From: an uncultured virus (IMG/VR IMGVR_UViG_3300010885_058768)
Taxonomy: Duplodnaviria; Heunggongvirae; Uroviricota; Caudoviricetes
IMG/VR virus record: IMGVR_UViG_3300010885_058768
Span: 57,289-77,288 of that record
Length of the DNA stretch: 20,000 bases
Reading direction: 5' to 3' (one strand)
Both the position numbers and the translations under genes were made by a program. The notes beneath the pieces are model-generated. The model saw nothing but the letters and a program-made list of their open reading frames with translations. It ran no database searches and was not told the origin of the DNA. Position 1 is the first letter of the stretch. Each line of letters begins with the position of its first letter. Shown here piece by piece: positions 3,073 to 19,148 of this stretch.

Positions 3073-3270
3073 ATGGCTCAAGACAACCAAGCCGACCAAG
3101 GCGAATTTTTAGGTAACGTTCTAGTGCTAACTAGAAATCAACTAGCGTCTGCTATGAACGCATGCACTGAACTAGAGGCTGCATTGACTATAGAAAGAAA
3201 GCGCAATGAAGAGCTAGCTGCTCGAGTCGCTGAACTAGAGTCTCAGACTAAGGCAGCTACGGATAAATAA
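3073..3270 (+). CDS. Small coiled-coil hypothetical protein
   Basis: AAGGA-type RBS upstream, a heptad pattern (LEAALTIERKRNEELAARVAELE), and TAATG coupling to the next gene. Confidence 0.75.
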   Translation: MAQDNQADQGEFLGNVLVLTRNQLASAMNACTELEAALTIERKRNEELAARVAELESQTKAATDK

Positions 3271-3740
3271 TGATTAACGTAAAAGATGGCGCCAGAACTC
3301 TTCAATTTGATGGAGAGCTTTTAGGTACGTCTTCTTCATACAGGAGAGGCTCTGTCCGCTGGATTGAGTTTGAGCTGTATAGAACCAAGAGCGGTTCGTA
3401 TGTTTTGTCTCGTGTTGGAGTTTCACTGGTCTTCCATGGAGCGGCGTGTCCTCTAGTAAAGAGATACAGTCTTACTGAGGCGCCGGTTGAAGACCTAACT
3501 GAACGCTCTCTTCCTTGCGAGCAGTGCAACCCTACTGATGACGTAGATTTAGTGTTCCCCGAAAAGAGTAGAAGCTGGGCGCAGGTTAGCGAAGAGCCGC
3601 AGGCTGTTCTAGACGCGCTTTACAAGTACGATGACGGTGGAGCAAGGTACCTAACAAACGTGGCGCAAAGGCTATTAGAAGATTCAGCCGAAAAAGACTC
3701 CAAAATAGATGAAGTCTACAGGATAGAACTTATCCCATAG
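3270..3740 (+). CDS. Hypothetical phage protein with a possible Zn site (H-x3-C ... CxxC)
   Basis: 156-aa ORF coupled to the upstream gene; motifs FHGAACPL and PCEQCNP. Confidence 0.75.
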   Translation: MINVKDGARTLQFDGELLGTSSSYRRGSVRWIEFELYRTKSGSYVLSRVGVSLVFHGAACPLVKRYSLTEAPVEDLTERSLPCEQCNPTDDVDLVFPEKSRSWAQVSEEPQAVLDALYKYDDGGARYLTNVAQRLLEDSAEKDSKIDEVYRIELIP

Positions 3741-3776: not shown

Positions 3777-4787
3777 ATGTTTATAGTAATCGAAGGCACA
3801 GACGCCTCAGGTAAGAGTTCACTTACTCAGGCTGTCGAAGAAGAAATCGCAAGCAGGCTCCAATCAAGGCTGCCTATCAACTCATTCCATAAGGGTAAAC
3901 CTGAGGAAGAGACTCGTCGTTGGGTTTTGCGTGATTACGTTCTGTCAATAGAAGATAAGTCATTCGTAGACAAGGCGACACTCGCTGACCGCTGGCACTG
4001 GGGAGAAATAACCTACGCTCCGCTAAAACGTCCACACACTAACAAGGACGGATACGGCCTTCTTGGAGAGGCTGGGTGGCGCTGGGTGGAACTTTTTATG
4101 GCTTCCCGTGGTATCCAACAGTTCTGGCTTTACCAGCCTCTAAGTGTCATAGAGGGCCGTCTAAAGGCGCGTGGTGATGACTATGTCTTGCCTGATGAGC
4201 TACCTTTTATTCTAGAACAATACGGCAAGGCAGCCGAGCAAATCATTGGCCTAAAGAAACTTCAACCTGCTCCAGACAGCCTAGATGAGATTCCAAATCT
4301 CGCTAAGGAAATTGTTGACCTAGCGCTTGTCAAGGCTGAGTCCGTTAGAGCTCTAAGAGACTTTGGTCCGTACATCGGAGTTCCTAAGCCTAAGGTTCTG
4401 CTAGTCGGCGATAGGCACAATGCCACTAAGCGCTATGGGCACGAGACTAACCTTCCATTTATGCCTGTTGATGGGAACTCAGGCGAGTATCTTCTCACTG
4501 CTCTTCCGGCAGATGAGTGGAAGAACATCGGACTTATAAACATAAACGACCATCCGGAGATGTTCCGTTCTCTTTGGGAAGCGCTAGGCTGTCCGCCGAT
4601 AGTAGCGCTTGGTCGCCTGGCCGAGCGAGGCCTAGTTAAACAAGGATTCATAGATTCTCAATACAACGTTGCTCCGCATCCGCAGCGGGTGCGCAGATTT
4701 GCAAACTCTAGAAAACAAGAATACGGCGAGGCGATACTTAGATTAGCCGACACTACAGATAAGGAAGACAAATGGATACTGCGATAA
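3777..4787 (+). CDS. Thymidylate-kinase-like (dNMP) kinase fused to a C-terminal uracil-DNA glycosylase-superfamily-like domain
   Basis: N-terminal: IVIEGTDASGKSS P-loop, DR motif (LADRWHWGEITY), RLKARGDD lid. C-terminal: KVLLVGD...PF...GNSGEYLL...IVALGRLA...PHP, which follows the UDG family-4-like motif order. Confidence 0.8.
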   Translation: MFIVIEGTDASGKSSLTQAVEEEIASRLQSRLPINSFHKGKPEEETRRWVLRDYVLSIEDKSFVDKATLADRWHWGEITYAPLKRPHTNKDGYGLLGEAGWRWVELFMASRGIQQFWLYQPLSVIEGRLKARGDDYVLPDELPFILEQYGKAAEQIIGLKKLQPAPDSLDEIPNLAKEIVDLALVKAESVRALRDFGPYIGVPKPKVLLVGDRHNATKRYGHETNLPFMPVDGNSGEYLLTALPADEWKNIGLININDHPEMFRSLWEALGCPPIVALGRLAERGLVKQGFIDSQYNVAPHPQRVRRFANSRKQEYGEAILRLADTTDKEDKWILR

Positions 4788-5626
4788 TCAACATCAAAGA
4801 CGGAGTCAATGGCTACGTTGACCTAGTGCAACATGTTTTAAAACACGGTAAGGAAGTGGCTCCACGTGGGCAGAAGACCAGAGAAATTGAAGACGCCATC
4901 ATTAGAATCGATGATGTCTACAACACTTTGCCTTTAGGAATCAACCGTGGAACCGTTCCTGGAATCGGTGCTGTAGAGGCTTGTCAGCTACTTGGAGGAA
5001 GCAGCATCCCGGAGCTAGTGATAGCCGTTGGTCCACAGTTCAAAAACTTTGCCGAGGATAACGGAATCTTTCACGGTGCGTATGGACTTAGAACCAATGG
5101 GCAATACGACGTTATTATCGAAAGACTCAAGGCAGACCCTGATACTCGCCAGGCCGTAGTCACAATCTGGAATCCAGAGTACGACCTGCAGCCAAGCAAG
5201 AGAGACTATCCTTGCACGGTTTTACATCAATTTAGAATTCGTGACAATAAACTAAACATGAGCGTCTACATGCGTTCCAATGACGTTTGGCTTGGTGCCG
5301 CCTACGACTTCTTCCAGTTTACCCGTGTTCAGTTGGCTATTGCTTCAGTGCTAGGAATCGAACCTGGAACTTATAACCACCACGTCGGCTCGCTTCACAT
5401 CTATGAGCAGCACTACGAGGCTGCAGACAGTCTCAAGTATAGTGATAAGATTATTGATGTGCCGTTTATAACTGGAGCAACATGGGCAGAGGTTAGCGAC
5501 TCAGCAAATGACGCTTTGTTTGCCGCCATGGATGTTAAGCCACTAGATAGCATAAGCCAAGACGCACGCTGGTACGCCGAGGCAATGAAAAACGCAATCA
5601 AGCGCAACGCTGAGAAGAGTGAGTAA
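4772..5626 (+). CDS. Thymidylate synthase-family enzyme, dCMP hydroxymethylase type
   Basis: Motifs YGLR, DTRQAV, catalytic PC (Cys148), MRSNDVWLGAAYD and SLHIYE. It has Asp179 where dUMP-specific ThyA has Asn (E. coli RSCDVFLGLPFN). Confidence 0.85.
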   Translation: MDTAIINIKDGVNGYVDLVQHVLKHGKEVAPRGQKTREIEDAIIRIDDVYNTLPLGINRGTVPGIGAVEACQLLGGSSIPELVIAVGPQFKNFAEDNGIFHGAYGLRTNGQYDVIIERLKADPDTRQAVVTIWNPEYDLQPSKRDYPCTVLHQFRIRDNKLNMSVYMRSNDVWLGAAYDFFQFTRVQLAIASVLGIEPGTYNHHVGSLHIYEQHYEAADSLKYSDKIIDVPFITGATWAEVSDSANDALFAAMDVKPLDSISQDARWYAEAMKNAIKRNAEKSE

Positions 5627-5866
5627 ATGCCAGAAGACGGCGAGCAGTACATAGACCTAGGCATTAGCCACCTACGTATTGTCGCCGTTCAACTTCACGT
5701 GGTCTACAAAGAACTACGCGAGGCCGGATTCGATAAAAGTGAAAGCTTATATCTAATCTCGCAGCTGCTTGTTGTGTCTACTCCTGAAGTAGACAGTGGA
5801 CCTTATAGATACGACAACTACAACGACAATGAGAGAGACGATGACGATGATGGTGCAGGAGCCTAG
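5627..5866 (+). CDS. Small hypothetical protein with acidic tail
   Basis: Starts immediately after the upstream stop; helical core (QLHVVYKELREAGFDKSESLYLI) plus an Asp-rich tail. Confidence 0.7.
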   Translation: MPEDGEQYIDLGISHLRIVAVQLHVVYKELREAGFDKSESLYLISQLLVVSTPEVDSGPYRYDNYNDNERDDDDDGAGA

Positions 5867-6323
5867 GCCGTCCTGGGACGAAGTTTGGATGGACGTTGCT
5901 AGAACTATTAGCAAACGTTCAAGATGCTCTAGAGCGCACGTAGGCGCAGTAGTAGTTTCGGCTGAACAGCGAATAAGCGCGACTGGCTACAACGGCCCGG
6001 CTGCGAATCTAAAAGTACAAGGCGACTGCATAAATTGGTGCGACAGAGCTAAGGGTCTTACTCCACTTGACAATACCTATGATTCTTGTCCGTCTATTCA
6101 TGCTGAGGCCAACGCTCTTTTATACGTAGACCGCTCGAGAATTGAAGGCGGAACTATCTACGTTACTGGTGCTCCGTGTATGCAGTGCGCCAAACTTATC
6201 AGCAACTCTGGACTGCGTAGAGTCGTCTCCATTGTTAGGCAGATAGATGTGCACAGAAAGCCAGAACGCGTGATAGACTATTTACGTAGCTGCGGAATAG
6301 AAGTATCTACCATTGAGGAGTGA
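5847..6323 (+). CDS. dCMP deaminase
   Basis: RPSWDE N-terminus, RSRC...VGAVVV, ATGYNG, HAE and PCMQC zinc motifs. The start is probably one of the ATGs at 5841/5847/5850 rather than the GTG at 5796. Confidence 0.9.
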   Translation: MMVQEPRPSWDEVWMDVARTISKRSRCSRAHVGAVVVSAEQRISATGYNGPAANLKVQGDCINWCDRAKGLTPLDNTYDSCPSIHAEANALLYVDRSRIEGGTIYVTGAPCMQCAKLISNSGLRRVVSIVRQIDVHRKPERVIDYLRSCGIEVSTIEE

Positions 6324-6326
6324 CAA

Positions 6327-8147
6327 ATGACACGTGGATTAGAAGAAGTAAAGTTAGACCTAGTTGATAGCGTTGAAAAGGCAGGACAGTTTCTAACCTG
6401 GCTTGGAGAACGCAGGCCACACAACGCTATAGCCATTGACACTGAAACAGGAGAGCTTCCTGGTCGCCCGCGCTCAGATGCGCTTTCTCCTTGGCACGGC
6501 AGACTTCGTTTAGTGCAGGTTGGGGATGCGATGCACGGCTGGGCGATTCCTTGGGACGAATGGGCTGGAGTCTTCTACCAAGCAATGAACAAATACGATG
6601 GTCAAATCGTGTGTCACAACATCGCCTTTGAAGCTAAGTTCTTTGAGATTCAGTCTAAGTGGAGTATGCCTTGGCAAAAGGCGCACGACACTATGATTAT
6701 GGCTCAAATTATCGACCCGCTTGGCTCTGGCGCTTTGAAGAGGCTGACATCACAATACGTTGACAGCAGGGCGGCTGCTTTGCAGTCTAACTTAGATAAC
6801 GCTTTGATAGACAACGGTTGGACCTGGGGAACTGTACCTACAAACTTTGAACCGTATTGGGCCTATGGCGCACTGGACACTGTGCTCACGATGAGACTGT
6901 GGGAAAAGTTCTGGGAGAAATGCGGACCTGATGGACCTTATAGCAGATCGTACGAGCTTGAGATGGCTGCAAGAAAAATAGTCACTCGCATGGAACTCAA
7001 CGGAGCGCGCATCGATTTAGATTATTCGCGTAAGAAATACGAAGAACTTAACAGCTATACTGAGCAAGTGAAGGCTTGGGCAAGAGACACGTACAATGGA
7101 GTTTCTATTACCAGCAACATTCAACTAGTTAGGTTGTTTGAAAGCATGGGAGCTGAGTTCACTGAGTTTACTGCGACTGGCCAGAAATCTGCTACTAAGG
7201 ACCAACTAAGACTTCTAGTGCGAGACGGCTCCCCAGAAGTACAGAATTTAGCTCAAACAGTTTTGGCTCAACGTAAGGCAGATAAACTAGCCAACACCTA
7301 CTTCCTAAACTTTATAAATGACAACATTAACGGATTCGTTCACCCGTCTGTAAAGACTCTTGGTGCGCGTACTGGTCGCATGTCTATCACTAATCCTGCA
7401 CTGCAGACTCTACCTAAGGGCGATGACACTGTTCGCCGTGCATTTATTCCTAAGGACGAAGACCACGTAATCGTGACCTCTGACCTTGACCAAGTCGAGT
7501 TTCGTATGTTTGCGTCGATGTCCAAGGACCCTAACCTAATCAGCCTGTTCAACCTTGCTGACGCAACTGGTTCGGACCCGTTTACTGAGATTGGCCGTGA
7601 GATTTATGCTGACCCGTCTATGCAACGTTCAGATAAGAGACGTAATCTAATCAAAGGCGTAATCTACGGTCGTCTTTATGGAGCCGGAGTTGAGAAGCAG
7701 GCAATCACTGCTGGTGTTGCAAAAACACAGATGCAGGCTGTGTCAGACGCCTTTGACACTAGGTTCCCAGGCATGTCCGTCTTTCAAAAGCAAATCGATG
7801 ACCTTGGCATGCGCAGACTGCGAGCTGAAGGTCAAGGATACGTTCACACTTGGACTGGAAAACGTCTTCCTTGTGATGACGACCGCACCTATACCTTAGT
7901 GAACTATCTGATTCAAGGTGGAGCTGCTGAGGTATTTAAGAACAACTTAGTAAAGTTAGACCAAGCAGATTTGACAGATTTGCTTATCGTGCCGGTGCAC
8001 GATGAAATCGTACTAAACGCACCAAGAAAAGATGTCAAAGAGATTATGCAGACTGTAAAGGAGTGTATGACTACGACAGAGGGATGGGCAGTTCCGCTCA
8101 CCTCGGGAATCGATGGACCACTTGAAACGTGGGGAGATAAATACTAA
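6327..8147 (+). CDS. polA: DNA polymerase family A (3'-5' exonuclease plus polymerase, no 5' nuclease)
   Basis: ExoI DTET, ExoII HNIAFE, ExoIII YGALD, TGRMS...PALQ, motif A DLDQVEFR, motif B KGVIYGRLYG, motif C VHDEIV. Confidence 0.95.
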   Translation: MTRGLEEVKLDLVDSVEKAGQFLTWLGERRPHNAIAIDTETGELPGRPRSDALSPWHGRLRLVQVGDAMHGWAIPWDEWAGVFYQAMNKYDGQIVCHNIAFEAKFFEIQSKWSMPWQKAHDTMIMAQIIDPLGSGALKRLTSQYVDSRAAALQSNLDNALIDNGWTWGTVPTNFEPYWAYGALDTVLTMRLWEKFWEKCGPDGPYSRSYELEMAARKIVTRMELNGARIDLDYSRKKYEELNSYTEQVKAWARDTYNGVSITSNIQLVRLFESMGAEFTEFTATGQKSATKDQLRLLVRDGSPEVQNLAQTVLAQRKADKLANTYFLNFINDNINGFVHPSVKTLGARTGRMSITNPALQTLPKGDDTVRRAFIPKDEDHVIVTSDLDQVEFRMFASMSKDPNLISLFNLADATGSDPFTEIGREIYADPSMQRSDKRRNLIKGVIYGRLYGAGVEKQAITAGVAKTQMQAVSDAFDTRFPGMSVFQKQIDDLGMRRLRAEGQGYVHTWTGKRLPCDDDRTYTLVNYLIQGGAAEVFKNNLVKLDQADLTDLLIVPVHDEIVLNAPRKDVKEIMQTVKECMTTTEGWAVPLTSGIDGPLETWGDKY

Positions 8148-12934: not shown

Positions 12935-14149
12935 ATGAAAATTCTTATGACAGGCTATACAGCCTTGCAGATTGGTAATCCAGTCCGCAGTATTCAAAAA
13001 ATCAACGTTCCAGCATCTATCGTGAAGGCGCTGCGTGACGCCGGACACGAGGTCGATTGGCGGAAGGTCACCGTTGGCGAAGACCTATCTATGTACGATG
13101 TTGCCTGGATAAACTTGGCGCCAATGAACTCGCTAAATGGACGCCATGGAGCGATGGGTACTCTGTACACTTTAGCTTCTGGTCTACCTTGCGTAGGCTT
13201 CTTCGATGACTGGCAGTTCAACGCTGTGTTCAACGGTGCACGCGCGCTAAAGCGTGACACGACTAAGATGCTTTATAAGCACCTGTTTGGTCCAGCAGAC
13301 GCTCGTGGCACTGAGGCAGCTACGCATTTTAGCCGCAAGTCAGTAGACGAGGCTATAGCTCGTATTGAAGCTGTAGACCCGGCTCGAGCAAAGAAAATCT
13401 CCTTCGAGAGATACTACATGTTAGACAAAGACGCAGACGTCGAGCCTTACGAAAAAATGCTCATTGAGTCAGCTAGTCTTCTTCTAAATGATCGTTGGGC
13501 TGAAGGAATGGTTCCAGTGTGTCCAATGTATGGTTTTGGTGATCGTTCACTTGTGCGCAAGCGTATGCCAAAGGACATGGGCGCAATCGAGGCGCTAGAC
13601 CCAAGCCCGACTATTTATGAGCTTCTAAATGAGGTTGCTCCGGCTGCACCTGAAACCAAAAAACGCGGCTGGGTACTTGGCGCGCTTATGCCACACGACA
13701 CCTGGTTAGATAAGAAAACTATTTCCTGGCCTGTAGAAATCGTTGGTAGTCGCAAACTTGTTCGTGAACGCGGCGGTCAGCGCTTTGACACAGAGAAAGA
13801 AGTGCTAGAGTTCTATAACCAGCACTGGGGAATTATGTCTCCGCCTTACATGCACTCTGGCTCAGGCTGGTGGCGTAGTCGTTTTATGTACGCAGCCCGT
13901 GTTGGTTCTATCCTGTTGACTGAGAAGGGTGAAGCCAATGGGCTTGGCTCAGCTTACAACGTCACTCTCGCTCAGGTTGAGAAGATGTCAGACGAGGAGC
14001 TAAAGGCTACAGCAGACGCACAGGCCCAAGCGCTTCGCGCATTTATGCCAACCTATCAAAGCTTCGCTGAACACTGTGTAAGAATCGTAGAACGAGCTGT
14101 GAAAGAAGACAAGGGCCTAAAGCTAAATCCTGACGGCACTCGAGCATGA
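12935..14149 (+). CDS. Putative DNA glycosyltransferase (GT-B fold, T4 beta-glucosyltransferase-like), paralog 1
   Basis: GT-B N-terminus MKILMTG...KALRDAGHEVDW...DLSMYDVAWINLAP...GFFDDW, similar in layout to T4 BGT; C-terminal PPY..GSGWWRSRF; nucleotide-modification gene context. Confidence 0.65.
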   Translation: MKILMTGYTALQIGNPVRSIQKINVPASIVKALRDAGHEVDWRKVTVGEDLSMYDVAWINLAPMNSLNGRHGAMGTLYTLASGLPCVGFFDDWQFNAVFNGARALKRDTTKMLYKHLFGPADARGTEAATHFSRKSVDEAIARIEAVDPARAKKISFERYYMLDKDADVEPYEKMLIESASLLLNDRWAEGMVPVCPMYGFGDRSLVRKRMPKDMGAIEALDPSPTIYELLNEVAPAAPETKKRGWVLGALMPHDTWLDKKTISWPVEIVGSRKLVRERGGQRFDTEKEVLEFYNQHWGIMSPPYMHSGSGWWRSRFMYAARVGSILLTEKGEANGLGSAYNVTLAQVEKMSDEELKATADAQAQALRAFMPTYQSFAEHCVRIVERAVKEDKGLKLNPDGTRA

Positions 14150-15168
14150 GCAAGATTTTGGTGACTGGAATGTCAGCACCACAGGCGTCTCAAAAGGCTA
14201 ACTCTCGAGGTTTAAGTTTTACTAAAGTCGTAGTTGACGCGTTGTCTGAGCTTGGCCACGAGGTTCACTGGTCTCTGCCCTCGCTAGACTGGACTGAGGA
14301 AGACTTGTCTTTATTTGACTCGGTTGTAGTTGGAGTTTCTCCGCTAACGAGTCTAAGTGCTAACTACTCATACGGTGGTCTTCATGCTATTGGAGAACTA
14401 AAGGACAGTGACAAACTTACCCTACTAATCGATGCTCCACAGGTTGCTCAAATAGGTGCGGGTCTACGGGCAGTTAGAAGTAATCCTGATAGCCTCACTA
14501 AGGCATTCTATTCGAATAGGCCAGGGTATCAGCGGGTGACGGATTCGAGTGTCTCTAAAAGGCTTCTAGCCACCGCCGAGTGGTTGCTGGACGAGCAGTG
14601 GCCAACAACTATCTATCCCGAGTTGCCGTGGAAAGATTCCGACTCGACAGAGCAACTTCTTCCTAGTGGAGCTAAAGGTGCGTTAGTTGGAATCAACCGA
14701 GACATCGCTCTAATCGAAAAAGACCTACTTACTGCAAGAAGAGAGAAGTGGGTAGTCGACAGCTACACGACTCCATGGGCTAAGTCTACAGTAAAAACTA
14801 TCTCACTCCCGACTGCTCCTATGAAGTGGCATAAGGGATGTGACGACGTCATGGTCCAAACTCAAATTGCTCGGTCAATTGGAGCACTAATAACTCCTTA
14901 CAGACAAGACGGCACTTGGTGGAGCTACAGATACGCTCAAGCGCTGTCTGCCTACACACCAATAGCTACAGGCTGGCAAGAGAGCGGGAAACTGCACGAC
15001 TCCTGGAGTTTCTTAGCGGCAACTATTGAAAGTGCAAGTCAGAATATACGTGATGGTATTTCTATAGAACAGCGTGAGTCCTACGTGGCGGCCATTCCAA
15101 GTATAATCGAAACCAATAAGAAACTTCAAGACACACTAAAAATTACAAAAAGAAAGGTAATACTATGA
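14146..15168 (+). CDS. Putative DNA glycosyltransferase (GT-B fold), paralog 2
   Basis: KILVTG...ALSELGHEVHW...DLSLFDSVVVGVSP...LLID and TPY...GTWWSYRY are collinear with the upstream gene; ATGA overlap. Confidence 0.6.
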   Translation: MSKILVTGMSAPQASQKANSRGLSFTKVVVDALSELGHEVHWSLPSLDWTEEDLSLFDSVVVGVSPLTSLSANYSYGGLHAIGELKDSDKLTLLIDAPQVAQIGAGLRAVRSNPDSLTKAFYSNRPGYQRVTDSSVSKRLLATAEWLLDEQWPTTIYPELPWKDSDSTEQLLPSGAKGALVGINRDIALIEKDLLTARREKWVVDSYTTPWAKSTVKTISLPTAPMKWHKGCDDVMVQTQIARSIGALITPYRQDGTWWSYRYAQALSAYTPIATGWQESGKLHDSWSFLAATIESASQNIRDGISIEQRESYVAAIPSIIETNKKLQDTLKITKRKVIL

Positions 15169-15653
15169 GCGATAACGTGCTTTTTAAAAAGTGGCTCGAG
15201 AAAACAAGAGAGCTTCAAAAAGAAGTTTACAAAATAGACTACGCCTCAATGGAAGGCGATAGCCCAGAAAACATCAATAACCTAGTTGAGTACATTCGCT
15301 GGAACATGCTTGCCATTGACGATGAGCTAGCAGAAATGCGCCAGGCAATCTCGTGGAAGCCGTGGCAGCATGACGAGCCATACGCAGACCGCGAGGAGCT
15401 AATCAAGGAAGCCGTAGACGTTCTGCACTTCGTGGCTAACATAATCGTAGCTGCTGGAGGAACTGACGAGGTACTAGATGAGTTCTACGTAGCTAAGATG
15501 GAAAAGAACCGTGCAAGACAGACCGCTGGATACAAGGTCAAGGCCGAGGGAATCAAGTGCGTAATGTGCTCGCGCGCGTTAGATGATGTGGCACCTAGCG
15601 AAAATCATCCAAATGTATGCGTAAAGTGTGATGAAGAAGATAGGAACAAGTAA
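15165..15653 (+). CDS. All-alpha (MazG / dimeric dUTPase-type) dCTP/dUTP pyrophosphatase with C-terminal CxxC..CxxC
   Basis: DELAEM..ISWKPW...EELIKEAVDVLHF...KMEKNRARQ..GY; tail CVMC...CVKC. Confidence 0.85.
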   Translation: MSDNVLFKKWLEKTRELQKEVYKIDYASMEGDSPENINNLVEYIRWNMLAIDDELAEMRQAISWKPWQHDEPYADREELIKEAVDVLHFVANIIVAAGGTDEVLDEFYVAKMEKNRARQTAGYKVKAEGIKCVMCSRALDDVAPSENHPNVCVKCDEEDRNK

Positions 15654-16447: not shown

Positions 16448-16987
16448 ATGCAAACATTCGTTCCACTGACAACTAAGTTCTCTGACATAGCGCAGGTTCT
16501 AGACAACAAGCGACTAAACAAGCAGGCACTAGAAGGCTGGCAGATTCTTATGGTTCTGACCAGGCTAAACCCAGACGGCTCACAGCGCGTAGTCAAAGGC
16601 TGGGCGAACCATCCAGCAGTCAAGATGTGGGAAGGCCACGAAGTAGCTCTTCACGACTACATCCAGGAGATGGTTATCGAATGGAAAAAACGTGGCTTCA
16701 AGTCGACCATCGGAGACAAGGCTGCACAGACCATGCAGCACGCCAAGGCTAACGGTTTTGACATCGATACGTACACTCTCCCGTCTTGGATGGTTGACCA
16801 TGAAGTTCATGAACTCGTTGCGGCTAGTCACCGGGTAGCTCTTCTAAACAAAAACTATCAGTGGTACACGCAGTTCGGTTGGCAGGAAGACGACGGAATC
16901 TATCCTGAAGTTTACACGTATGTTTGGCCTAATGTTGACGGCACGTACATCATAGGTGAACCAAGAGCCACTTTAGCCAACAAATAG
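16448..16987 (+). CDS. MSMEG_6728-family / pyrimidine-dimer DNA glycosylase (T4 endonuclease V-like)
   Basis: MQTFVP...LDNKRLNKQALEGWQIL...GWANHPAVKMWEG...EWKKRGF...SHRVALL.K...Y.WP. Confidence 0.85.
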   Translation: MQTFVPLTTKFSDIAQVLDNKRLNKQALEGWQILMVLTRLNPDGSQRVVKGWANHPAVKMWEGHEVALHDYIQEMVIEWKKRGFKSTIGDKAAQTMQHAKANGFDIDTYTLPSWMVDHEVHELVAASHRVALLNKNYQWYTQFGWQEDDGIYPEVYTYVWPNVDGTYIIGEPRATLANK

Positions 16988-17121
16988 AGGTCACCAGGCG
17001 GTCGTAGAGACACTTTCACGCCTGCGCCCAGGTACTAATACCCCCTAAAAATTCAAGAAACACCGGGGCTTTTACCCAAAACTTTTGCTCTAAACCCTGT
17101 AATATTTTTATAGGCGCTGGA

Positions 17122-17469
17122 ATGGAAGCAATGAAAAGAGAATCTCGCATAGGTGAGTCTCTGTGGCAGGAGTGGACCGGAGACGGCTACGAATCTGCTA
17201 ACGAAAATGCCGTCGTGTTCTTTACAGAGGAGCACGTCGACGTCGAAATTGACGTAGTGCAACGCGCACTTGCTTCCGCTTTACAGCGAGACGGCTCTGT
17301 CTCCTCTCTCGGACAGGGCTACAAGGCGATTGAAGACGCCATAATCACGCAAGGATACGCTGGACAGGTTGACGGAGAACCGGACCTAACTCTATGCGAT
17401 GACCAGGGAGAAACCAGGTATGGAGACTGCGTTGAAAGCGTAGTTGCCGTCACCTGGGTAGAGGTGTAA
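17122..17469 (+). CDS. Acidic hypothetical protein
   Basis: 115-aa ORF abutting whiB; the start may be the ATG at 17131. Confidence 0.7.
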   Translation: MEAMKRESRIGESLWQEWTGDGYESANENAVVFFTEEHVDVEIDVVQRALASALQRDGSVSSLGQGYKAIEDAIITQGYAGQVDGEPDLTLCDDQGETRYGDCVESVVAVTWVEV

Positions 17470-17470
17470 G

Positions 17471-17980
17471 TTGACAAAAAATAACGACATGTCTTGGCAA
17501 AAAGACGGAGTCTGCGCTAGACCAGAAAACAAGGGTAAAGAGACGTTCTTCTTCTCAAGTAAGACGGACGAAAAATACCAGGCAAAGAACATGTGCTTCT
17601 CCTGCCCTGTAAGACGAGACTGTGTCAAGTTCGCTCTCGAGACAAAACAAATCTGGGGTATCTGGGGTGGAAAAGACGAAGGAGAAATCCGCAGGACTCT
17701 TTCTGTGTCCTGGAACGGTCAGGAATCAAGAAGACAGAGACCGCCTCAATGTCCTTATTGCAACGCAAGAACTAGTAAGTTGCAGACTATAGTGGCTGAC
17801 GTTCCCGGCGGTGGGCGATGGACCACGATGAAACTTGTAAATTGCACTGAGTGTGACTTTACTTGGAGAAGTAGAACTAGTGCTAACGCTGTAGAGACTT
17901 ATCACATTCAAAGAAGCGAAAAACTCGCAAAGAGCGAAGAAGAAAAGAAAGCTAAGAAGCCTAAAGCTTTACCGGAATAA
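17471..17980 (+). CDS. whiB: WhiB-family Fe-S transcription factor with C-terminal zinc ribbon and basic tail
   Basis: WQKDGVC...FF...AKNMCFSCPVRRDC..FAL....WGIWGG, then CPYC-x25-CTEC and a Lys-rich end. Confidence 0.9.
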   Translation: MTKNNDMSWQKDGVCARPENKGKETFFFSSKTDEKYQAKNMCFSCPVRRDCVKFALETKQIWGIWGGKDEGEIRRTLSVSWNGQESRRQRPPQCPYCNARTSKLQTIVADVPGGGRWTTMKLVNCTECDFTWRSRTSANAVETYHIQRSEKLAKSEEEKKAKKPKALPE

Positions 17981-19148
17981 CTCGTACATATTCTCGCGGG
18001 TCAAAGTCTCCGCCAATAACCATCGTCAGTAGACCTGGCTTGGATTCTAAGCCCGCTCGGTCTCTAAACCACTCAGACCCGGGGTCAGTTGTTGGCGCCT
18101 GTACCCAGAAGCGATGGCCGATGTCCATACACTTGTAGTTGTGGAAGTGTCCTGACACCCAGACGTCTGCCATTCCAAGTGAAGTCTGTCCTGCCGCTTG
18201 AGCAGAGATGTACTTCAATGGGTCTCTTGCCTGATGTCCATGAAACAGACCAAGCATGCAGCCGTCTATGTCTACTGTTAGAGTTTGGTGACCTGACGAT
18301 GGGTAGCGAAACTCAATGTGTTGCAGCGCTGGATTCTCTGCGCAGGCGTCTTGGACTGCCGCTGCAATCTCAACGTTCCAGCCGTCTGCCGGGTCAGCCG
18401 CAACTAGCCTAGTGGCTTCATCGTGATTGCCGTTTACAACGGGTATGACCATTCGTTCCGCTAGCGGAGCAAGAGCCTTGACCTGTGCCATAAGCAAGCG
18501 TCTTGCAACGCGAACCTGCTCAGTTAGTCCTAGGTCAGAAGCTGCCTGCCCTTGAAGTCTTCCACCTTGAGAAACGTTTCCTTCGACGTGGTCTCCAGGT
18601 AAGCCTAGAACTATTGTTCCTAGATTTAATCCCATGCGAGTTAGCGCCTGATAGTGAGCAACGCTTCCCTCGGTTAGATGAAGGATTCTTTCAATGGACT
18701 GCTGAGTTCCTTGGCCGTTAGCTTTCTTACCGATTTGCTGGTCGCTTGGAAATACTGAATAAGCGCCTTGTCCGGTGTTTGGCTTAATTCCTTTTTCTGG
18801 GCGCCACTTTTTAATTTCGTCTATAAGCTGTTCGGCGTCAAGTCTATTGTCGTTTGAGTAGCCGGCTGGAGCCAGGTTTACTCTAAGTGACTCTAAAAAC
18901 TCTCCATCATACTTCTGCCACTTGCCTCTTCTCATCGAGGTAATCACCCAGTCGTTTGGGTTTAGGCCAAAATCTTCTAGCACTGCTCTTGCGTCCTGCA
19001 GCTCACTCGCTGGGCGAGGAGTTGAGATTACGTATCCACCTCGCTGGTCGTCAAGGTCCATGCGAGCACGCCAGTCTTCTGGCACGTTCAACGACTTGTA
19101 GTCTGAACCAGAGTTTCCTGGACTAGATAAACTTTCAAAAAGACCCAT
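17961..19148 (-). CDS. Calcineurin-like metallophosphoesterase (Mre11/SbcD-like)
   Basis: SDQQIGK, GDHVEG, GNHDE, FHGH and GHFH motifs. Confidence 0.85.
   Translation of the reverse strand: MGLFESLSSPGNSGSDYKSLNVPEDWRARMDLDDQRGGYVISTPRPASELQDARAVLEDFGLNPNDWVITSMRRGKWQKYDGEFLESLRVNLAPAGYSNDNRLDAEQLIDEIKKWRPEKGIKPNTGQGAYSVFPSDQQIGKKANGQGTQQSIERILHLTEGSVAHYQALTRMGLNLGTIVLGLPGDHVEGNVSQGGRLQGQAASDLGLTEQVRVARRLLMAQVKALAPLAERMVIPVVNGNHDEATRLVAADPADGWNVEIAAAVQDACAENPALQHIEFRYPSSGHQTLTVDIDGCMLGLFHGHQARDPLKYISAQAAGQTSLGMADVWVSGHFHNYKCMDIGHRFWVQAPTTDPGSEWFRDRAGLESKPGLLTMVIGGDFDPREYVRVIPVKL

Follow-up and report, generated by a model that had tools for sequence, protein, structure and literature searches.

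The gene at positions 3777 to 4787 of the window (the whole stretch of 20,000 nucleotides that was analysed) encodes a polypeptide in which a predicted nucleotide kinase of the thymidylate kinase (Tmk) fold is joined to a small domain with the fold of uracil-DNA glycosylases (UDGs), here called the mini-UDG. The fusion of kinase and mini-UDG is common in uncultured phages. Tentatively, we favour the reading that the protein combines a kinase for 5-hydroxymethyl-dCMP (hm-dCMP) with an active DNA glycosylase for U and 5-hydroxymethyl-U (hmU), which would protect DNA containing 5-hydroxymethylcytosine (hmC).

Overall structure of the fusion protein

The features of the gene and its product are as follows.

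3777..4787, + strand, whole gene of the kinase and mini-UDG fusion (ORF listing; ATG start, 336 aa plus stop)
3777..4271, + strand, N-terminal P-loop nucleotide kinase domain, YorR/thymidylate-kinase-like, residues 1-165
3795..3818, + strand, P-loop GTDASGKS, residues 7-14 (from the translation)
3987..3998, + strand, DRWH motif, residues 71-74
4158..4178, + strand, LID-like segment RLKARGD, residues 128-134, aligned to 'RLRVRGDE' of YorR
4281..4343, + strand, long inter-domain linker helix, residues 169-189 (DSSP on the full-length model)
4359..4784, + strand, C-terminal mini-UDG domain, residues 195-336, without Fe-S cysteines
4407..4421, + strand, motif-A equivalent GDRHN, residues 211-215, directly after strand β1 (E207-211 in the model)
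4458..4460, + strand, Phe228
4539..4541, + strand, Asn255, at the end of strand β2 (E251-255 in the model), in the place of the uracil-recognising Asn
4677..4700, + strand, motif-B equivalent HPQRVRRF, residues 301-308, after strand β4

The full-length AF2 model has a pLDDT of 92.5 and a pTM of 0.92. Kinase and UDG-fold halves are both recovered, in agreement with the original prediction of a kinase fused to a UDG-like domain. That prediction placed the start of the second domain at about 4370, and the computed onset lies at about residue 195-199 (nucleotides 4359-4371). The overlap of 16 nt that it described between this gene and the next is also found, the ATG of the neighbouring ThyA homologue being at 4772 and the fusion reading frame ending at 4787 (overlap 4772-4787); by an estimate from BLAST offsets, it is kept in 67 of 83 related loci. 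The gene is read as one polypeptide carrying two enzymes, and we infer both activities.

The kinase domain

The N-terminal half has the P-loop NMP-kinase fold, with the P-loop, the DR-x motif and the LID arginines all present. Residue conservation, here and below, was counted over 129 full-length relatives drawn from clusters at 50% identity. In the P-loop, K13 is invariant, and G7 and G12 are each found in 128/129. The DRWH motif, which presumably sits where Tmk carries its DR(Y/H/F) motif, keeps D71 in 128/129 and R72 in all 129. In the LID-like segment, R128 is present in 103/129, R132 in 109/129, G133 in 107/129 and an acidic residue (D/E134) in 120/129. The best Foldseek matches of the kinase half are YorR (E 3.6e-7), Tmk, with many Tmks among them, and PPK2. 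The family profile aligns with YorR (structure 2axp) at E 1.2e-20 across positions 2-167 and with Tmks at about E 1e-5, and the PHROG family phrog_761 'thymidylate kinase' is matched at E 5e-8. The Tmk models of Pfam and NCBIfam remain below cut-off: PF02223 (Thymidylate_kin) has no match in the window protein at E ≤ 0.1, and TIGR00041 reaches 17.7 bits where 83.25 is required. With PADLOC, the full protein matches at the P-loop level only and the C-terminal domain gives no match. Judged by these fold and profile matches, the N-terminal half is a kinase of the Tmk fold; the curated models do not mark it as a dTMP kinase. We infer the substrate, hm-dCMP, only from the adjoining hydroxymethylase-type ThyA homologue.

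The mini-UDG domain

The structure search assigns the C-terminal domain to the UDG fold, an α/β fold with a central parallel sheet as in UDG families 1-6. A structural match to the UDG superfamily, chosen beforehand as the test on which the assignment would stand or fall, was thus found. The closest folds are family-4 enzymes (T. maritima 1l9g/1vk2, T. thermophilus 1ui0/1ui1, S. tokodaii 4zbx), UdgX 6ail and the family-5 enzyme 2d3y; the UdgX-dUMP entry 6ajp is also among the matches. The mini-UDG differs from all three groups in length (about 140 aa, compared with about 190-220 aa), in being fused to a kinase, in lacking the four-Cys Fe-S site, in its motif A (G-D/E-x-R-x) and in being undetectable by sequence. 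PF03167 gives no match in the window protein at E ≤ 0.1 and none in a six-frame search of its record, and no UDG of the PDB is found by sequence with the window protein or, at E ≤ 10, with the close-family profiles A1, A2 and A3. Among 23 distant relatives, two have sub-threshold PF03167 matches (E 1.4e-3 and 0.029).

Motif A of family-4 UDGs is GE(A/G)PG. The GDRHN of the window is a rare variant when compared across loci, the family consensus being G-D/E-x-R-(N/G); G211 is found in 128/129, D/E212 in 127/129 (D in 88, E in 39) and R214 in 97/129. The polar, acidic residue after β1 is retained and the remainder of the motif is rebuilt. Phe228 (127/129) we take, from the order of the secondary structure elements, to stand where family 4 has its base-stacking Phe (PF-x-G-x-AG); around it P230 (128/129), S235 (122/129) and G236 (120/129) are conserved. 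Asn255 is invariant (129/129). Motif B is kept almost entirely, with H301 in 128/129, P302 in 129/129, Q303 in 123/129, R/K306 and R307 both in 129/129 and F308 in 127/129. Four positions past the motif-B His there is a hydrophobic residue (V/I/W) in 108/129, the place of the intercalating L272 in human UDG (PMC13160076). In a phage PolA-UDG of solved structure, the catalytic residues are described as the motif-A Glu E53 and the motif-B His H178 (PMC13697223). The original prediction called the domain degenerate; with the positions equivalent to the UDG catalytic and pocket residues (D/E212, F228, N255, H301) nearly invariant in the alignment, it is streamlined, not degenerate. The near-invariance of these positions and of R307 indicates that residues of catalytic type are strongly selected.

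The C-terminal domain of the window has one cysteine (C272). Its relatives have between 0 and 4, with no conserved cysteine column in the 129, which rules out a four-Cys Fe-S site. The lack of the family-4 motif and of the Fe-S cysteines, first noted for the window protein, therefore extends across the 129 relatives, and family-4 membership is excluded by the GDRHN motif A and the missing cysteines. With a median pI of 8.2 the C-terminal domain is basic, as expected for a nucleic-acid-binding module; the kinase half, at 5.9, is acidic. We also considered an aGPT-Pplase or amino-acid:DNA transferase, marked by an HhH fold and a conserved Cys/Glu, which is excluded since the domain has the UDG fold, not helix-hairpin-helix (HhH), and no conserved Cys. 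The aGPT-Pplases of thymidine hypermodification are described as having a helix-hairpin-helix DNA-glycosylase-like fold (PMC8989533).

Gene neighbourhood

Five further genes of the window bear on the predicted function.

4772..5626, + strand, ThyA homologue with dCMP-hydroxymethylase signature (PF00303, 2.9e-27)
5796..6323, + strand, dCMP deaminase (PF00383, 9e-21)
6327..8147, + strand, family-A DNA polymerase (PolA) with 3'-5' exonuclease and without a UDG domain (PF00476, 1.7e-54; PF01612)
15165..15653, + strand, MazG/dimeric-dUTPase-like NTP pyrophosphohydrolase (PF08761, 3.7e-10; phrog_18650 'dUTPase', 6e-20)
16448..16987, + strand, DenV-like pyrimidine-dimer DNA glycosylase (PF03013, 3.2e-18)

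The best solved relative of the ThyA homologue is the CMP hydroxymethylase MilA (5b6d, E 2.5e-22). The window enzyme carries L143D, keeps D169 and carries N177D; in the alignment with MilA there is a D at Cys-3 and a D at the N177 place. By the rule given in PMC13326640, an acidic residue at the L143 place together with N177D and D169 denotes a dCMP hydroxymethylase, and D169N a 5-hydroxy-dCMP synthase. The hydroxymethylase originally proposed downstream of the fusion is thus supported by its L143D/D169/N177D signature, and its activity is predicted on that basis. The corresponding 'DCDD' signature (D three residues before the catalytic Cys, with D169 and N177D) is present in 81 of 83 loci.

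In 79-80 of 80 IMG/VR loci the fusion is followed by the ThyA homologue, the dCMP deaminase and PolA, in that sequence. The deaminase and PolA are each present in 79/80, and the one locus without the deaminase ends at a contig end. The MazG/dUTPase-like protein is a candidate for the dCTPase/dUTPase of the pathway. The presence of a DenV-like glycosylase in the window indicates that base-damage repair is selected for in this phage. A pair of paralogous ORFs lies at 12935-15168, downstream of the fusion locus. Searches of Pfam, NCBIfam, PHROGs and PDB sequences give no support for these as glycosyltransferases, and that label comes solely from the annotation of a homologue in DSL-LC01.

Comparison with known systems

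T4 gp1 is a dNMP kinase that acts on modified dCMP. It stands alone, and its likeness to the window kinase lies in the predicted phosphorylation of modified dCMP. YorR/Tmk-like nucleotide kinases also adjoin ThyA homologues in RB69, DLP3 and RL38J1; these too stand alone, whereas the window kinase is fused. Their ThyA partners carry D169N and make 5-hydroxy-dCMP, whereas the window partner retains D169. For DLP3_078 the best structural match is YorR 3kb2 (table in PMC13326640), as for the window kinase. In SPO1-like, SP15-like (phiLo/YerA41) and N4-like phages, the UDG domain is carried by PolA, whereas here it is carried by the kinase, and the PolA-UDG phages modify thymine, in contrast to the cytosine pathway predicted here. 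Brig1 and Brig3 belong to the UDG superfamily and, like the mini-UDG, have ties to the biology of phages with hmC; from them it is clear that the superfamily can be retargeted, Brig3 to 5hmC and Brig1 to α-glucosyl-5hmC, as reported in a preprint (PMC13160076). They are, however, host-encoded, larger, stand-alone and aimed at phage DNA; the mini-UDG is phage-encoded and is likened to them by superfamily only.

Distribution of the fusion

Homologues of the protein number 393, and among 120 listed, 119 have 333-339 aa with at least 99% coverage. The C-terminal domain alone recovers 544 clusters at 50% identity; among 150 listed, 126 carry an N-terminal P-loop. The fusion is present in all 80 IMG/VR loci fetched with the motif-B pattern (HPQRVRRF equivalent) as the search key, each time upstream of the ThyA homologue. 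An assembly chimera, raised originally as a concern, should be missing from relatives; the fusion recurs in the 80/80 IMG/VR loci, in DSL-LC01 and in Bacillus phage G. It is neither a chance event nor a chimera.

A tblastn search of a phage collection with the window protein, its C-terminal domain, P0180 and P0205 finds the C-terminal domain only in DSL-LC01, which is metagenome-assembled; the phage G homologue is recovered solely by fold search and profile. The Gordonia phages Forza (gp180, 262 aa) and GodonK (gp194, 260 aa) were rejected as cultured carriers, having the kinase half only. Both have the same kinase and a hydroxymethylase-type ThyA homologue, and their genomes contain no mini-UDG at E ≤ 1. 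P0205 (136 aa) was rejected as a stand-alone mini-UDG, its IMG/VR relatives being fusions of 316-324 aa with the same gene order. No locus was retrieved for P0175, and a free-standing form is not established. In Atlas viral clusters of 127-137 aa, PF03167 is found in 18-36% of members. No other UDG (PF03167, E ≤ 1) is encoded in the window's own 77-kb record or in five related records, two of them complete genomes.

In public records, the gene is named only 'thymidylate kinase' or 'hypothetical protein'. A literature search, its scope set outside supplements and the 2013 phage-modification paper of Iyer and colleagues, found no published description of the fusion, and in a word search of the main text of the MetaGPA paper (PMC8670742) UDG, kinase and glycosylase are all absent.

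The homologue in Bacillus phage G

Phage G gp315 (331 aa) is without a name in JN638751 and is called 'thymidylate kinase' in NC_023719. It is matched by the family profile (E 3.1e-24, positions 3-295 of 316) and ranks third in the BFVD fold search (E 2e-5). Its Pfam scores are 48.2 bits for UDG (cut-off 24.3) and 28.9 bits for Thymidylate_kin (cut-off 27). The hhalign comparison of the C-terminal domain profile with gp315 is weak (probability 45%, E 2e-4). The two proteins share the order of kinase and UDG and are similar in length, and both genes lie near a dCMP deaminase and near a ThyA homologue whose hydroxymethylase signature is the same. They differ in sequence (21% identity), in an insertion around β2 of gp315, in its motif A (AQNPG), in that gp315 passes the Pfam UDG threshold and in that its ThyA homologue is near but not directly adjoining. 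We take AQNPG to be closer to the MUG/SMUG type. Two homologues of the T4 α-glucosyltransferase are reported near gp315 (PMC6024577). Gp315 could be an orthologue of old standing, or the fusion could have arisen there independently. In two unrelated phage lineages, the window type and phage G, the fusion is tied to a predicted hmC pathway.

Proposed function

In the glycosylase reading that we prefer, the YorR/Tmk-like domain would be the phage's own dNMP kinase and would convert 5-hydroxymethyl-dCMP, supplied by the translationally coupled neighbouring ThyA homologue, to the diphosphate, by analogy with T4 gp1. The mini-UDG, without the Fe-S cluster and the GEAPG loop and retaining D/E212, Phe228, Asn255 and His301 in the HPQ-x-V-R-R-F loop, would be a catalytically active monofunctional DNA glycosylase that flips out and removes uracil-type bases from phage DNA. 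Its targets would be U and probably also hmU, the deamination product of hmC. U would be frequent in this DNA, since the dCMP deaminase and pyrophosphatase that the phage encodes increase dUMP, which the kinase may pass on. Unless removed, hmU:G would fix C-to-T changes in an hmC genome, and host Ung would not be able to clean it. Among the activities listed in the original prediction, excision of U or deaminated hmC ranks highest; a glycosylase that feeds the kinase is chemically weak, because a free base would be released and not a dNMP. Several points count against an active glycosylase. The rebuilt motif A (G-D/E-x-R-x, not GEAPG) means that the water-activating geometry may differ; Forza and GodonK, without a mini-UDG, indicate that the domain is dispensable for the pathway; and in a short lytic cycle repair of deamination may give little benefit.

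The kinase partner, moreover, points at least as naturally to a role at the nucleotide level. The UDG-fold domain would then bind or hydrolyse free dUMP or hm-dUMP arising from the neighbouring dCMP deaminase, gating or sanitising the input of the kinase, as a phage counterpart of pool-cleaning enzymes and not of DNA repair. We regard such a role as unlikely, though several features fit it: the kinase to which the domain is joined works on mononucleotides, translation of the gene is coupled to that of the ThyA homologue that makes nucleotides, and the compact, confident two-domain model (pTM 0.92) suggests that the domains may act together. Entry 6ajp shows that dUMP can be bound by a protein of the UDG fold; the conserved carboxylate, Asn and His would fit glycosidic-bond hydrolysis in any context, and the invariant R306/R307 could hold a 5'-phosphate. 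However, we know of no member of the UDG superfamily with a free nucleotide as its physiological substrate, and the basic C-terminal domain and the V/I/W at the place of human L272 (108/129) fit DNA binding. Binding of DNA, or of PolA, could also serve as a non-catalytic tether that anchors the hm-dCMP kinase and the nucleotide supply at the replication fork, in the way that UDG domains and subunits act in other viral replisomes. This too is doubtful: UDG domains that became purely structural, as described for N4-like PolA, lost their catalytic residues (PMC13697223), whereas those of the mini-UDG are nearly invariant.

Other readings would change the target of the enzyme. The mini-UDG might be a new UDG family, retargeted through motif A, that polices the modification state of DNA while coupled to the supply of hm-dCDP; its targets would be unmodified C in the DNA of the host or of rivals, or hmU/glycosyl-hmU from deamination, so that precursor synthesis would be coupled to quality control at the fork in a phage-side mirror of Brig1/Brig3. 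We consider this improbable. Somewhat harder to credit is a weapon that attacks host or competitor DNA by excising unmodified C, or some other base that the glycosyl-hmC DNA of the phage itself lacks; this would be the glycosylase counterpart of the cytosine-specific nucleases of T4 and a mirror of host Brig-type defence glycosylases. It would draw on the retargeting seen in Brig3 and Brig1 (PMC13160076), on the link to the hmC pathway in two unrelated lineages, and on a rebuilt motif A that could reshape the pocket. The kinase would not be fed, however, since bases and not dNMPs are released, and nothing points to a role in toxicity or host shutoff. Asn255 is invariant, and in family-1 UDG cytosine excision needs an Asn-to-Asp change at the equivalent place. 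Least probable, in our view, is a kinase acting on DNA, in which hmC or hmU, flipped out by the UDG fold, would be phosphorylated on its 5-hydroxymethyl group by the P-loop domain, priming hypermodification as 5-hmdU DNA kinases do. Kinases for hmU in DNA exist and are reported in metaviromes as fusions to other modification enzymes (PMC8989533), and the paralogous genes downstream (12935-15168) would suit such a pathway. Yet M6 gp54, a 5-HMUDK (Table 1 of PMC8989533), gives only a short local hhalign match to the kinase profile (32 columns, probability 72%), whereas YorR and Tmk are matched over the whole domain. In the complete DSL-LC01 genome, the fusion is the sole match to a Tmk-like kinase, so the pathway would lack a dNMP kinase, and YorR/Tmk-like kinases adjoin ThyA homologues in the cytosine-modifying phages characterised in PMC13326640.

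The family of the C-terminal domain is large, almost all its listed members being kinase-fused, and the function can be tested in a cultured phage through gp315 of phage G. If active, the mini-UDG would rank among the smallest enzymes of the UDG type and, with its altered water-activating loop, would be a candidate for a seventh family. It would then interest enzymologists and could serve as a tool, for instance in sequencing chemistry as a glycosylase specific for hmU or a modified base. Activity would also reveal by what means phages with modified cytosine keep their DNA free of uracil-type bases, and would bear on the old question of whether dNTP synthesis is physically coupled to replication and repair.

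Domain architecture and distribution

Features of the window (window coordinates)
3270-3740, + strand: 156-aa ORF just 5' of the fusion gene
3777-4787, + strand: fusion gene, 336 aa; the next ORF (ATG 4772) overlaps it by 16 nt
12935-14149 (404 aa) and 14146-15168 (340 aa), + strand: paralogous tandem ORFs, both matching one DSL-LC01 gene
16448-16987, + strand: DenV-like pyrimidine-dimer glycosylase
17471-17980, + strand: WhiB-like regulator
17961-19148, - strand: SbcD/Mre11-like exonuclease

The original prediction placed a dNMP kinase followed by a UDG-like half at 3777-4787, with a 16-nt overlap with the next ORF; coordinates, overlap and domain order all agree with our analysis. The fusion is no assembly chimera: it is real and widespread, with a mini-UDG ORF followed by a ThyA homologue in 80 of 80 IMG/VR loci fetched. 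The dCMP deaminase and PolA come next in 79 of these, the exception being truncated by the contig end. The fusion protein has 393 homologues; 119 of the 120 listed fall within 333-339 aa and reach 99% coverage or more, and the other is 304 aa long. An exhaustive search with residues 170-336 alone gave 544 representative clusters (E ≤ 1e-3). The 150 listed span 107-362 aa; 126 have an N-terminal P-loop, and most of the 17 below 260 aa are visibly truncated kinases. The closest named genome is the metagenome-assembled Actinomycetia phage DSL-LC01 (52.5% identity over the full length), in which the gene is annotated "thymidylate kinase"; the available part of the DSL-LC01 paper (PMC10611076) does not discuss it. 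One cultured phage, Bacillus phage G, carries a homologous fusion.

Kinase half

In the kinase domain (residues 1-165) the P-loop reads GTDASGKS, a DRWH motif follows, and R-x3-RGD forms a LID-like segment. The family profile matches the solved SPbeta protein YorR (2axp/3kb2) over the entire kinase domain (E 1.2e-20) and thymidylate kinases at E about 1e-5. Foldseek with the full-length AF2 model (pLDDT 92.5, pTM 0.92) ranks YorR first, with Tmks and PPK2 next. The fusion protein falls below the pass level of curated Tmk models, and the N-terminal half is therefore assigned as a kinase of the Tmk/YorR fold, its substrate unproven. The sole Tmk-like match in the complete DSL-LC01 genome is the fusion gene itself. 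YorR/Tmk-like "nucleotide kinases" adjoin ThyA homologues in characterised cytosine-modifying phages, according to a table in the accessible text of PMC13326640.

Mini-UDG

Conserved positions in 129 full-length sequences (the window protein and 128 representatives of clusters at 50% identity)
Gly211: 128/129
Residue 212, after β1: Asp in 88 and Glu in 39 of 129
Phe228: 127/129
Pro230: 128/129
Asn255, end of β2: 129/129
Gly279: 129/129
His301: 128/129
Pro302: 129/129
Arg/Lys306: 129/129
Arg307: 129/129
Phe308: 127/129

The C-terminal domain, modelled alone (pLDDT 94.4), gives the structural matches to the UDG superfamily that were sought: all Foldseek rows listed at E ≤ 1e-3 are chains of this superfamily (family 4, UdgX, family 5, BdiUNG). 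A second fold search, independent of Foldseek, covered 48,161 chains. The link to UDGs at the sequence level is weak. A Pfam search with the window protein gave no match, a PDB search with three family profiles matched no UDG chain, and PF03167 matched, below threshold, just 2 of 23 distant relatives.

Phage G gp315 (331-aa ORF) bridges the fusion family and UDGs in sequence. The family profile matches it at E 3.1e-24 (positions 3-295 of 316), and gp315 passes two Pfam thresholds, that for UDG with 48.2 bits over residues 189-318 and that for Thymidylate_kin with 28.9 bits. The C-domain-only profile aligns weakly with gp315 (probability 45%, E 2e-4), placing LLVGDRHN on VMVVAQNPG and HPQRVRRF on HPAYVKRF.

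GDRHN does stand in place of the family-4 motif, at residues 211-215; among the mini-UDG relatives the motif usually reads G-D/E-x-R-(N/G), His at 214 as in the window being rare. The C-terminal half holds a single cysteine, in keeping with the predicted lack of Fe-S cysteines, and the mini-UDG lies outside family 4. The term "degenerate" does not hold, the catalytic-type positions being near-invariant. Judged by strand positions in the AF2 model, the conserved residues occupy the places of UDG motifs A and B, of the stacking Phe and of the Asn that reads the base. According to the accessible text of PMC13697223, the catalytic residues of a solved phage PolA-UDG are the motif-A Glu and motif-B His, and both are gone in those N4-like polymerases whose UDG domain has turned structural. 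As the catalytic-type residues are kept here, the domain is a small Fe-S-free UDG with motif A rebuilt. Its median pI is 8.2 (basic), against 5.9 (acidic) for the kinase half.

Predicted cytosine-modification pathway

The ThyA homologue 3' of the fusion gene has MilA CMP hydroxymethylase as its best solved match (E 2.5e-22). Asp occupies the third position ahead of its catalytic Cys (the L143 place) and the N177 place, and the Asp of the D169 place is retained; 81 of 83 loci carry this "DCDD" signature, the exceptions being one cut ORF and one short misaligned ORF. In such homologues N177D confers dCMP preference, an acidic L143 accompanies hydroxymethylation and D169N marks 5-hydroxy-dCMP synthases (PMC13326640, accessible text); by this rule the protein is predicted to hydroxymethylate dCMP. 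Further products of the window are a dCMP deaminase and a MazG/dUTPase-like pyrophosphatase. The deaminase ORF (5796-6323, +), with a GTG start as listed and a Thr/Met-rich leader, overlaps a 79-aa ORF (5627-5866, +) ending in an acidic tail; its true start may lie further downstream than 5796.

The tandem ORFs at 12935-15168 may encode DNA glycosyltransferases for the hmC pathway, their single DSL-LC01 homologue being annotated "glycosyltransferase". Neither matches a Pfam or NCBIfam family, which leaves that annotation unconfirmed; in the PHROG search one matches, to a PHROG of unknown function only, and ORF 14146-15165 gave nothing meaningful against the PDB.

In phage G, an unrelated jumbo phage, genes close to gp315 likewise include those for a dCMP deaminase (gp317) and for a ThyA homologue with the same hydroxymethylase signature (gp319). 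Two T4 alpha-glucosyltransferase homologues, gp306 and gp313, are nearby (PMC6024577, accessible text). With a glucose-1-phosphate thymidylyltransferase (gp309) and a HAD phosphatase, the region (JN638751 224000-240000) forms a T4-like set, from which glycosylated hmC is predicted in phage G DNA; the accessible text of PMC6024577 contains no statement on the chemistry of this DNA.

Kinases of two cultured Gordonia phages
Forza, locus L002, 4995-5783: "thymidylate kinase", 262 aa, kinase half in common with the fusion
GodonK, locus L003, 5001-5783: "thymidylate kinase", 260 aa, kinase half in common with the fusion

Besides the kinase, both phages encode a ThyA homologue of hydroxymethylase type, but their genomes contain no mini-UDG, fused or elsewhere; the C-terminal extension of their kinases (about 100 aa) has no detectable likeness to it. 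The mini-UDG is thus an accessory of the hmC pathway and not a requirement.

Genomic neighbourhood

The window is the end part of a 77-kb viral record (58% complete, CheckV). Its replication module is of actinophage type (WhiB, PolA, SNF2 helicase, PD-(D/E)XK nuclease, RecA-like AAA_24 protein), and 16448-19148 is a neighbourhood rich in repair genes in this lake actinophage. The 156-aa ORF is matched by BLAST in 72 of the 83 related loci, Forza and GodonK among them, and may be part of the fusion-gene module. Pfam and PHROG searches assigned it no family; its cysteine pairs (..HGAACP.. and ..LPCEQCNP..) could be metal ligands. A large tail-fibre-like ORF (3-2879, +), open at the window start, contains short, almost identical repeats in a row (TSGNIYTTSGNIY...); at its C-terminal end, the segment with ..SSDYRLKENV.. 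resembles a tail-spike chaperone domain of the self-cleaving type.

Proposed function

The architecture and the fold are established, as are conservation at the catalytic-type positions and a tight linkage of the gene to hmC genes. Tentatively, and at somewhat less than even probability, we infer that the kinase phosphorylates hm-dCMP and that the mini-UDG is catalytically active, acting on phage DNA as a glycosylase of uracil-type bases. No canonical UDG was detectable in the window's record or five related records. Uracil would come from a dUMP-rich pool made by the phage itself and hmU from deamination of hmC; host enzymes or the phage's own DenV-like glycosylase could process the AP sites, T4 endonuclease V having AP-lyase activity.

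It is rather unlikely that the mini-UDG sanitises or gates at the nucleotide level, and a non-catalytic tether to DNA or the replisome is equally so. Attack on unmodified or foreign DNA is thinkable from the Brig1/Brig3 precedent (preprint PMC13160076, accessible text) and is improbable. Least probable of all is a kinase acting at the DNA level, with base flipping; likeness to the 5-hmdU DNA kinase M6 gp54 is limited to 32 columns.

Our literature search, at the level of main texts, found no published description of a kinase-UDG fusion. The family would represent a new lineage of small UDGs, in a new fusion architecture.
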